Below, one piece after another: positions 18,300 to 19,861 of a stretch of DNA of 32,000 nt; the stretch's first letter is position 1, and each line of letters opens with the position of its first letter. The position numbers were made by a program, and so were the translations under genes. Source of the DNA: Methanobacterium sp. MZD130B (GTDB taxonomy: Archaea; Methanobacteriota; Methanobacteria; Methanobacteriales; Methanobacteriaceae). The stretch covers positions 46,286 to 78,285 of the forward strand of contig NZ_JBLNNI010000012.1 in NCBI RefSeq assembly GCF_047786645.1, given 5' to 3'. The notes beneath the pieces were generated by a model. It was not told where the DNA came from, ran no database searches, and saw only the letters and a program-made list of their open reading frames with translations.

Positions 18300-18381
18300 A
18301 TATACGCATTTTCTCATTTAAATTTATGATATTAGCATTTTTATCTAGATCTCCCCAGACTTGGTGAAAACTATAAATATT

Positions 18382-18409
18382 ATAACTTATAACTTATAAT
18401 TTATAAGAT
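18382..18409 (+). promoter_or_regulatory. Heptad iteron array ATAACTT-ATAACTT-ATAATTT-ATAAGAT directly upstream of the ParA-type gene
   Basis: Four 7-bp units read directly, equivalent to three TTATAA hexamers at 7-bp phasing. The array ends 14 nt before ATG 18424 and abuts the AGGAG SD, so it must overlap the promoter. It contains the 20-mer ATAACTTATAACTTATAATT (18382-18401), also found at 28713 and 28813. Confidence 0.6.
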
Positions 18410-18423
18410 TTAGGAGATCAATT

Positions 18424-19209
18424 ATGGCGGAAGTTATAGCAATTTTAAATCAGAAGGGAGGTTGTGGTAAAACCACCACTGCAGTTAATCTTTCTACTTC
18501 ATTAGCACTTTATGGAAAGAACATATTGGTTATAGACATGGATCCTCAAGCTAATGCTACCACTGCATTTGGTTTGGAGAAAAATGAAGATAATTCAATA
18601 TATCGAGTTTTAACAGGACAACAAACTCTGGATGAGGCTATTGTTGCAACTAAAATATCAGGATTAGATCTTCTTCCCAGCCACATCTCTCTGAGTGGTG
18701 CCGAAATCGAACTTAGCAAGGATATAGGATTTCCATTTATTCTTAAAGAGACTATGGATGATGTTCAGGAGAATTACGATTATATTTTTTTGGATGTGCC
18801 GCCTTCCTTAGGTATACTGACAATAAATTCATTAGTAGCTGCTGATAGTGTCATAATTCCAATTCAAGCTGAATTTTATGCATTAGAAGGAATGGCTGAT
18901 CTGTTAGATGCCATGAACTTAGTGGAAACTCGTTTAAACAGTCCTTCACCCATCAAAGGAATCTTAATCACCCTTTATGATTCTCGAACTAGGTTAGGTA
19001 GGGATGTTTACCAGAATGTAAAGCAATTCTTTGGTGAGACAGAGTATATCTTTAACACAACGATCCCTCGTAATGTGAAGCTGGCTGAAGCACCTAGCCA
19101 TGGCAAACCATGTGTAATTTATGATGAGGAATGTGTTGGAACTGAAGCATATAATGACCTTGCCAAGGAAATTTTAACAATGAACGGGCAAGGAACGGAG
19201 GAAGCATAA
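18424..19209 (+). CDS. parA: ParA/Soj/SegA-type partition ATPase (deviant Walker A)
   Basis: 261 aa. Deviant Walker A NQKGGCGKTT, MDPQ motif and Walker B IFLDVPPSLG. No N-terminal HTH extension, so a small type Ib/chromosomal class. Its stop overlaps the next start (TAATG). Confidence 0.9.
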   Translation: MAEVIAILNQKGGCGKTTTAVNLSTSLALYGKNILVIDMDPQANATTAFGLEKNEDNSIYRVLTGQQTLDEAIVATKISGLDLLPSHISLSGAEIELSKDIGFPFILKETMDDVQENYDYIFLDVPPSLGILTINSLVAADSVIIPIQAEFYALEGMADLLDAMNLVETRLNSPSPIKGILITLYDSRTRLGRDVYQNVKQFFGETEYIFNTTIPRNVKLAEAPSHGKPCVIYDEECVGTEAYNDLAKEILTMNGQGTEEA

Positions 19210-19601
19210 TGACTCCATCAAAAAAGAGTGAAAAAGCATTAGGTAAGGGATTAGACGCTTTAATTCGTAAAGAAAAATCAGAATCTACCGTAAATACGAA
19301 AAAATCTCCTATGAAGGGGAACGTTTCGATTAAAGGTTCTGCTATAGAAAAACCAAAGACAAGAAAAGTCAGGAAAACTCAAGAAGATCCTTACAAAATG
19401 ATTTTTGAAGGTGTTGTACTAGAAGTTCGCAAGAATCCGCGCATATCCCTTTGGTCAGCAAAATCCGCAGCCGTTTTTAGATTTTTAAAAAAAACTAAAC
19501 CTGCATTTAGTATTAGCAAAGAGGCGTCAGTGCTTATTGAAGAAGCCGTGCAACAGAAGTATCCTGAAATCTGGGAATTGTTTGAAGACGAAGAATTTTA
19601 A
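19209..19601 (+). CDS. Small partition-adaptor candidate (SegB / mini-ParB-like): ParB-type N-terminal peptide, basic linker, putative RHH C-terminus
   Basis: 130 aa, translationally coupled to parA with a GGAGG SD. Residues 10-19 ALGKGLDALI resemble the conserved N-terminal GLG(K/R)GLxAL(L/I) peptide of bacterial ParB/Spo0J. No ParB/Srx CTPase or HTH region is visible. The C-terminal RISLWS / AKSAAVFRFLKKT / SKEASVLIEEAVQQ pattern fits a strand-helix-helix layout. Confidence 0.6.
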   Translation: MTPSKKSEKALGKGLDALIRKEKSESTVNTKKSPMKGNVSIKGSAIEKPKTRKVRKTQEDPYKMIFEGVVLEVRKNPRISLWSAKSAAVFRFLKKTKPAFSISKEASVLIEEAVQQKYPEIWELFEDEEF

Positions 19602-19608
19602 TTTTTTT
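19602..19608 (+). terminator. Oligo-T tract (T7) immediately after the stop of the parA-adaptor operon
   Basis: TAA at 19599-19601 is followed directly by TTTTTTT. Archaeal RNA polymerase terminates intrinsically at oligo-T runs. Confidence 0.4.
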
Positions 19609-19819
19609 AAATTTTCTCATGAGGTTACGATTATCAGAGAAAAAAATCTTTCAATATCCTGTTCAACATATTAATTAATAGCTATACTACTTTAAAAATT
19701 GATTAACTATTTGACACATTGATCTTGATAAAAGATGATTTTTGATTTGAATATCACAAAAATTGATTTTCTATTGTTGCGTCTAGAACTCTAATCAAAA
19801 ATATGAAATGACATGAATT

Positions 19820-19861
19820 ATAACATATAAGTTATAACTAATAACTTAGAACTTATAAGAC
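19820..19861 (+). repeat. Six consecutive 7-bp units ATAACAT-ATAAGTT-ATAACTA-ATAACTT-AGAACTT-ATAAGAC
   Basis: Read directly. The last 28 bp match the 18382-18409 array at 24 of 28 positions in the same orientation. Contains the 10-bp palindrome AGTTATAACT. Overlaps the last codons and stop of the radical SAM gene on the minus strand. Confidence 0.6.

Follow-up and report, generated by a model that had tools for sequence, protein, structure and literature searches.

SegAB and the Methanobacterium locus

The SegAB system of archaea pairs an ATPase, SegA, with a small DNA-binding protein, SegB, whose sites are known from Sulfolobus. In S. solfataricus, chromatin immunoprecipitation with sequencing (ChIP-seq) gave the SegB motif TCTAGA-S-TCTAGA, two palindromic hexamers one G/C apart in a 7-bp register, with a cluster of sites near segAB and others scattered (PMC12284271), and in S. 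acidocaldarius the site, segS, consists of three AGNGTNN repeats located -25 to -6 of the segA start (PMC12139799). The crystal structure of S. solfataricus SegB with DNA contains two dimers on two half-sites, forming a left-handed superhelix like that of omega, with bases read by K52, W56 and K75 (PMC8682754), and Sulfolobus SegB forms segregating foci on its sites (PMC12139799, PMC12284271). Cassettes of segAB in Euryarchaeota, including the Methanobacteriales and M. thermautotrophicus, have been known since 2012 (PMC5120986, PMC12139799, PMC12284271), those of Methanobacteriales through comparative genomics (PMC5120986, PMC12139799), so that it is the predicted site, and not the system, that is new here. 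In T. sibiricus, the Sulfolobus-type site was not found near segAB, and Kabli et al. suspected a different sequence (PMC12284271). Here, a segAB pair and the predicted sites of its SegB are described from Methanobacterium sp. MZD130B, in a 32,000-nt stretch referred to as the window (NCBI RefSeq assembly GCF_047786645.1, contig NZ_JBLNNI010000012.1, positions 46,286 to 78,285 of the forward strand); coordinates are those of the window unless preceded by a locus identifier.

Heptad arrays in the window

The locus is probably a chromosomal SegAB partition system in which arrays of a tandem 7-bp unit (heptad) form predicted SegB binding sites of the segS type, as judged from sequence comparison. 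On the forward strand, segA (18424-19209) encodes a 261-amino-acid (aa) ATPase and segB (19209-19601) a basic protein of 130 aa and pI 9.8, the stop codon of the former overlapping the ATG of the latter in the sequence TAATG at 19207-19211. This is the arrangement given in a preliminary description of the window, and overlapping segAB genes have likewise been described elsewhere (PMC12284271).

The heptad consists of the palindromic hexamer TTATAA and one variable base, mostly C or G. Upstream of segA, the forward strand carries TTATAAC TTATAAC TTATAAT TTATAAG (18380-18407), a candidate segS and operator. Downstream, in the spacer between segB and a convergent radical-SAM gene, it carries TTATAAC ATATAAG TTATAAC TAATAAC TTAGAAC TTATAAG (19818-19859), the last two heptads overlapping the final radical-SAM codons. 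Two further arrays, read on the same strand, share a 158-bp intergenic region some distance away: TAATAAC TTATAAC TTATAAT (28711-28731) begins 15 bp ahead of the minus-strand gene for a 68-aa ferredoxin, which has its start codon at 28696 and overlaps hisB, and TTATAAG ATATAAC TTATAAC TTATAAT (28804-28831) lies just 3' of an FMN-reductase-like gene. With wider limits, these two arrays span 28706-28737 and 28801-28837. The preliminary description had read the upstream units in another phase, as ATAACTT-ATAACTT-ATAATTT-ATAAGAT at 18382-18409, and had counted six downstream units at 19820-19861, the last four identical to the upstream units at 24 of 28 positions; both readings agree with the sequence on recounting. 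Its picture of arrays bracketing the gene pair holds for the two flanks, but missed the other two arrays in the window and a further two to its left.

When the window was scanned for three phased heptads, allowing up to three mismatches, these four arrays were found; among 30 composition-preserving shuffles 27 contained none and three contained one (~0.1 per 32 kb). The 14-mer, again with up to three mismatches, has 36 matches where 9.5 are expected, a count reached in none of 100 shuffles. The two segAB flanks are also picked up by Tandem Repeats Finder, with a period of 7, at 18380-18406 and 19818-19858. The heptad arrays are real and non-random, and an origin by chance or low complexity is rejected. 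Known partition sites are at chance level in the window: the bacterial parS sequence TGTTNCACGTGAAACA has one match with three mismatches (0.85 expected), and the Sulfolobus SegB motif is no more frequent than by chance.

The SegB homologue

In Pfam and NCBIfam, the 130-aa protein has no match, the ParG, omega and CopG families included, and no ParB_N domain was found. A first search collected 771 relatives, and an exhaustive one 274 representatives. Their alignment shows an invariant N-terminus, ALG(K/R)GLDALI, a variable K/S/E-rich linker and a conserved C-terminal domain of ~65 residues. In the window protein these correspond to the ParB-like peptide ALGKGLDALI (residues 10-19), residues ~22-62, and a predicted ribbon-helix-helix (RHH) domain (residues ~63-127) with KNPRISLWS at 75-83. 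A profile of 24 family members matches the solved SegB 7DUV_A (E 8.4e-11), as well as 7DV2_A (5.6e-08), and covers residues 36-126. The C-terminal signature published for SegB is K/R-D/N-P-K/R-I-G/T-V/L-W-S (PMC12139799), and KNPRISLWS fits it with a sole departure, S at the G/T position; N76, P77, R78 and S83 are invariant in the family alignment and W82 is at least 90% conserved. Because its profile matches a solved SegB and it carries the published signature, the protein is identified by sequence as a SegB homologue, which bears out the earlier assignment of the gene pair to a SegAB-like module.

The profile alignment relates S. solfataricus SegB to the window protein residue by residue: K52 corresponds to R78, W56 to W82, S57 to S83, P72 to P98, K75 to S101, S77 to S103 and R78 to K104. 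The K52-to-R change of euryarchaeal SegB has been pointed out before (PMC8682754). An AlphaFold2 model of the monomer is weak (predicted local distance difference test score 62.7); it has helices at 61-75, 81-96, 104-117 and 119-127 and an extended segment at 76-80, with no beta-strand called, and a Foldseek search of the PDB with this model gave nothing below E 3.6. Given a weak model and an uninformative fold search, the RHH fold is predicted from homology to solved SegB.

Across the euryarchaeal SegB family the N-terminal peptide LG(K/R)GLDAL is conserved. It matches the N-terminus of a bacterial ParB, KKPALGRGLSALL (locus L038), where it precedes the ParB_N domain. A phmmer search of PDB sequences with the 26-residue SegB N-terminal peptide found no match. 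A ParB-like tail fits the Soj-like nature of the partner SegA.

Three side observations concern this family. SegB homologues (window 19209-19601; P0001, P0002, P0020, P0026) are named 'AAA family ATPase' in NCBI and UniRef; as SegB has no ATPase motif or domain, the name seems to be an annotation error that has spread between records, its likely source being the adjacent ParA gene. Within segB, the region coding for the linker contains a period-10 repeat, AAAGTCAAGA (3.1 copies, 19355-19385), which fits the published idea that purine-rich, slippage-prone tracts give rise to length variation in the SegB linker (PMC12139799). Finally, some family members, P0135 (322 aa) and P0138 (332 aa), have two or three NP(R/K)-x-x-x-W/Y-S RHH modules per chain, and such proteins may be natural single-chain pseudo-dimers.

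The SegA ATPase

SegA is assigned by its sequence to the ParA/Soj-type deviant Walker-A ATPases (Pfam AAA_31 5.6e-64, CbiA 1.5e-25), in line with the preliminary description, and its Walker A motif is NQKGGCGKTT at residues 9-18 (K11-G-G-C-G-K16-T-T). Its best solved relatives are bacterial Soj/ParA proteins, with full-length matches of 1e-57 to 3e-62, including 8RAY (2.6e-62), Helicobacter Soj (1.2e-58) and the segregation protein 1WCV (6.4e-58), presumably Soj of Thermus. S. solfataricus SegA (7DUT) matches at 1.5e-18 only, over residues 4-162, and a Bacteroidetes ParA (L038) is 44% identical. By sequence, then, this ATPase is of the ParA/Soj type and far nearer to bacterial Soj than to S. 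solfataricus SegA; euryarchaeal proteins of ~260 aa are nonetheless counted as SegA by Kabli et al. (PMC12284271).

Conservation of the locus and its arrays

The gene order thrS-pepM24-segA-segB-radical SAM is kept across Methanobacterium species, and segA-segB-radical SAM into Methanobrevibacter. The locus lies on a 1.95-Mb contig among housekeeping genes, and with its conserved synteny it is chromosomal and vertically inherited. The arrays could be thought of as direct repeats marking the two ends of a 1.5-kb cassette of recent acquisition, the alternative offered by the preliminary description: they bracket both genes in the same orientation, and according to a proposal by Charles-Orszag et al., the Methanobacteriales ancestor received segB long ago by horizontal transfer (PMC12139799). 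Since gene order is conserved across species and genera, and the same arrays recur 10 kb and 20-25 kb away, this alternative is rejected, its probability being negligible; moreover, no integrase or transposase was found at the segAB locus and G+C near the pair is ordinary.

In four other Methanobacterium species, with SegB 55-80% identical, arrays stand before segA, after segB and in the ferredoxin spacer, with no further arrays in 20 kb; the two ferredoxin-spacer arrays are conserved in L008, L010 and L011. A scan of metagenome contigs with the SegB alignment produced 80 loci (447 kb). A segA homologue precedes segB in 77 of these, and in the remaining three segB lies within 100 bp of a contig end. 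An array is found within 200 bp of the segA start in 51 of the 52 loci with a complete upstream region, and arrays follow segB within 420 bp in 67 of 76. Elsewhere in the 447 kb there are three arrays only, all adjoining the 3' end of the radical-SAM gene, at least one of them (L147) after an insertion between segB and that gene. Arrays also accompany segAB in Methanobrevibacter and other genera.

The same layout extends to Thermococcus litoralis, whose genome (CP006670.1) has 46% G+C and carries segB near 2.029 Mb: in 12.3 kb, the sole matches, even at five mismatches, flank segAB. Upstream, TCTAACT TCTAAGT TATAACT TATATCT TATAACT ends 36 bp before the segA ATG, and downstream, TTCTAAC TTTTAAG TTGTAAG directly follows the segB stop. 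Comparable repeats beside orthologous gene pairs, a check proposed in the preliminary description, are thus present in Methanobacteriaceae and Thermococcus alike.

Promoter context of the upstream array

A putative archaeal TATA box, TATAAATA (18372-18379, forward strand), abuts the first upstream heptad; it is so called because it resembles the methanogen TATA-box consensus, TTTATATA. Almost all of ~50 distinct orthologous upstream regions have an A/T-rich TTTATAT, TTTAAAT or TATAAAT directly 5' of the array. In the window, the array ends 5 bp before the Shine-Dalgarno sequence AGGAG (18412-18416) and 17 bp before the segA ATG. The orthologous consensus runs from AAATATTTATA through TTATAAC TTATAAS TTATAAT TTAGAAC TTATAA, followed by 5-20 nt, GGAGG and the ATG, and other spacer sequence is not conserved. 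An array placed right behind a TATA-like box and across the expected start of transcription has the classic geometry of archaeal repression; autoregulation is therefore likely, and the upstream array is probably also the autoregulatory operator of segAB.

This geometry is also in keeping with an explanation in which the arrays are SegB operators only, with SegB as an RHH repressor of segAB and of a few other promoters (ferredoxin/hisB, Ham1-like, bacA) and no centromere role. The arrays at 28711-28731, L212:1932 and L212:6636 likewise stand just upstream of genes, and a 2016 review considered that the Sulfolobus sites might be regulatory too (PMC5120986). However, in the 67 of 76 loci mentioned above, the longest arrays are those that follow segB, where two genes converge. 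With no promoter there to control, such arrays cannot serve as operators, and a centromere-like role is argued for chiefly on this ground. The segregating foci that the homologous Sulfolobus protein makes on such sites (PMC12139799, PMC12284271) also argue against a purely regulatory function, as do the conserved ParB-like, putatively ATPase-activating tail and the obligatory ParA partner, which point to coupling with a motor. Operators alone are therefore an unlikely explanation, and a partition function with autoregulation is preferred.

Distribution of the arrays

Extending the window by ~9 kb on each side brought in two more arrays, both of them in the left-hand extension, the right-hand one having none; this makes six in ~50 kb. 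The array at L212:1932-1964 is 6.7 kb left of the window start and 24 bp upstream of a gene for a Ham1-like NTP pyrophosphatase; that at L212:6636-6674 is 2.0 kb left of the window start and ~100 bp upstream of an undecaprenyl-diphosphatase (BacA) gene. As a remote control, a histone/ribosomal-protein region from four Methanobacterium species, 80 kb in total but mutually homologous as one syntenic region and hence worth ~30 kb of independent sequence, has no arrays, and not even two-unit matches; one of these four loci is ~660 kb from segAB on the same contig. The arrays are rare elsewhere and clustered within ~35 kb around segAB.

A wider view came from the 18-mer ATAACTTATAACTTATAA, searched against a collection of genome contigs; the figures that follow hold among the matches listed, which are a sample. 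Most matches are in unrelated bacteria (Poribacteria, Nostoc, Bacteroidota). Nine blocks are from Methanobacteriales, and five of these hold segAB with the match at its flank, a proportion very unlikely for a generic promoter module; the other four represent additional sites away from segAB. The scattered, generic element that the preliminary description had contemplated is accordingly not what is seen, either among these blocks or in the remote 80 kb.

A related alternative is that some other factor binds the arrays, either TBP/TFB, for which the units would be reiterated TATA-like boxes, or an unrelated transcription factor, and that the link to segAB reflects a shared promoter module, for instance of the cell cycle. 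TTATAA is A/T-rich and TATA-like, and several intergenic regions close to the start of a gene contain arrays. Nevertheless, both segAB flanks carry arrays in two euryarchaeal orders, including positions that are not promoters, whereas ~45 other intergenic regions in the 50-kb neighbourhood have none, nor do the ribosomal-protein and histone promoters of the 80-kb control. The 7-bp register, with a palindromic hexamer and one base, is in addition the known design of a SegB site (PMC12284271). Recognition by another factor is accordingly improbable, more so than the operator-only explanation, and the heptad arrays are very probably the docking sites of SegB, as predicted here from sequence.

Two groups of matches deserve mention in their own right. 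In two Methanobrevibacter (L112:7105-7170 and L115:4828-4901), paired arrays occupy the spacer between divergent HAD-like hydrolase and gatA genes, with no segAB in the 8-kb block; these are a candidate secondary SegB site of that genus. In a contig from a Bacteroidetes metagenome-assembled genome (CAITNS010000053.1, L038:7723-7757), the 96-bp spacer that separates parA from parB contains five perfect ATAACTT heptads, ending 6 bp before the parB ATG. This is the only parA-bearing block among the 111 non-archaeal blocks in the matches listed for the 18-mer, and it may be a coincidence, or similar heptads may be used beside bacterial parAB.

Points against a SegAB partition site

Several observations weigh against the interpretation favoured here. 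Experimental work on SegAB covers two Sulfolobales only, and the hexamer TTATAA differs from the Sulfolobus TCTAGA at four of six positions, with only the outer T and A in common, so that what is shared is the architecture. The base frequencies of the heptad are partly circular, as the arrays were detected with the consensus, and runs of TTATAA resemble TATA boxes to which general transcription factors could bind. Nor is it apparent how the arrays in front of the ferredoxin/hisB, Ham1-like and bacA genes would relate to segregation. To these may be added the weak SegB model with its uninformative fold search, the narrow independent base of the remote controls, and the nature of the 18-mer matches as a sample of Methanobacteriales sites and not a genome census.

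Proposed mechanism and significance

If the arrays are SegB sites, one SegB dimer would occupy each heptad, inserting its beta-ribbon (R78, S80, W82) into the major groove, and dimers 7 bp apart would contact each other through the conserved P98 loop. Cooperative polymerisation of SegB along the array would then build a left-handed nucleoprotein filament of the kind seen in the S. solfataricus SegB-DNA crystal and with omega of pSM19035. The flexible, basic SegB tails bearing LG(K/R)GLDALI may dock on DNA-bound SegA-ATP and stimulate its ATPase, and SegB-coated arrays would be pulled apart on the nucleoid by SegA. SegB on the upstream array would also repress segAB, giving autoregulation, and the ferredoxin/hisB and leftward arrays could be extra loading sites or co-regulated promoters.

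A broader proposal can be made tentatively, at a little under even probability: euryarchaeal SegAB may form a distinct chimeric branch, combining a Soj-type motor, an RHH SegB with a ParB-type peptide, and a TT(A/C)TAA-S heptad centromere code shared from Methanobacteriales to Thermococcales, with a multi-array domain spanning tens of kb around the operon. If so, methanogens and Thermococcales would gain their first defined centromere, and the proposal would explain why the Sulfolobus motif fails near T. sibiricus segAB (PMC12284271). The heptads are, on sequence grounds, a concrete candidate for the differing SegB site of that species.

The heptad site was not met with in a literature search, in which a full-text query with TTATAACTTATAA matched a single, unrelated phage paper and SegB combined with methanogen gave only reviews. 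New here are the predicted euryarchaeal segS, its clustered layout on two flanks, and the pairing of a Soj-like motor with a ParB-like peptide on an RHH protein; this pairing bears on the exchange of ParA motors and adaptors between Bacteria and Archaea. With chromosome segregation in Euryarchaeota essentially uncharacterised, the TTATAA-S arrays offer a precise, testable candidate centromere in methanogens and Thermococcus.

Neighbouring features of the window

The radical-SAM gene (19846-20976, minus strand; stop 19846-19848) encodes a protein with a helix-hairpin-helix domain that falls just short of the TIGR03916 cutoff ('putative DNA modification/repair radical SAM'), with 333.5 bits where 343.5 are required. 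In almost every Methanobacteriaceae locus examined, this gene converges on segB, with the downstream arrays in between, and in M. ferruginis (L009, a three-gene insertion; segB near 723.4 kb of AP027738.1) and L147 each side of the insertion still carries an array. A non-coding spacer of ~215 bp (19602-19817), with no Rfam match, separates the segB stop from the downstream array; it is seen only in the source species and its closest relatives (L011, L132), and in most other species arrays begin 5-40 bp after the segB stop.

At the start of the window are two tRNA genes (1-63, cut by the window edge, and 140-211), adjoining a gene for an Mrr_cat restriction-endonuclease-like protein (409-1227); these tRNAs were the only hits of an Rfam scan, which found nothing in the segAB region. 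A nearby replication origin was considered and rejected, there being no Cdc6/Orc1 among the annotated open reading frames and no skew switch. The 12-mer TTACACTTGAAA occurs as a single exact copy at 24231-24242, in the 580-bp spacer before mtd, with no cluster; it resembles the origin-recognition-box repeat of Methanothermobacter, but was not taken as an origin.

Comparison with known partition systems

The closest counterparts are the SegAB-segS systems of the Sulfolobales (S. solfataricus SSO0034/0035, S. acidocaldarius). These have in common with the window locus the overlapping genes, a homologous C-terminal domain in SegB, predicted here to be RHH, behind a disordered N-terminal tail and variable linker, and the contact residues W56, S57, S77 and P72, kept as W82, S83, S103 and P98. 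As in the arrays predicted here to bind SegB, a 7-bp register marks the Sulfolobales sites that immediately precede segA, and other sites are clustered close by or dispersed (PMC12284271, PMC12139799, PMC8682754). The differences lie in the site and in the partner. The hexamer is TTATAA here, and TTCTAA or TTATAA in Thermococcus, in place of TCTAGA or AGNGT, and the base-reading K52 and K75 are replaced by R78 and S101; a different hexamer fits changes at two of the three base-reading residues. The arrays here are longer (4-14 heptads) and stand on both flanks, the 261-aa SegA is nearer to bacterial Soj (1e-58) than to S. solfataricus SegA (1.5e-18), and the SegB N-terminus bears the bacterial ParB-type LG(K/R)GLDAL. 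The hosts differ as well, the methanogens being rod-shaped and dividing with FtsZ, whereas Sulfolobales are cocci that divide with ESCRT proteins.

With the type Ib systems (delta/omega of pSM19035, ParF/ParG of TP228), the locus shares a small Walker-A ParA lacking an N-terminal DNA-binding domain and a small centromere binder, RHH in type Ib and predicted to be so here, whose flexible N-terminal tail in type Ib activates the ATPase. Type Ib centromeres are also tandem short repeats, direct and inverted, that double as the par operator, and omega binds 7-bp heptads with one dimer each. Unlike these, the locus here is chromosomal and vertically inherited, its ATPase belongs to the chromosomal Soj branch, no similarity to omega or ParG is detected in the sequence of its SegB, and its heptad is unrelated to WATCACW. 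The segAB pair of the window would work like a type Ib system without being a member of that class.

Bacterial ParABS (Soj/Spo0J-parS) resembles the locus in its Soj-type ATPase (44% identity to a Bacteroidetes ParA, E 1e-58 to Soj structures), in the LG(R/K)GL-x-AL motif at the partner's N-terminus, and in the clustering of sites within a limited chromosomal neighbourhood. It differs in that the partner here has no ParB_N/HTH CTPase domain and parS does not exceed chance in the window; with 7-bp repeats predicted to be recognised by an RHH domain, spreading as a sliding clamp is not expected. The locus bears on whether SegAB of rod-shaped, FtsZ-dividing archaea resembles the Sulfolobus system or bacterial ParABS.

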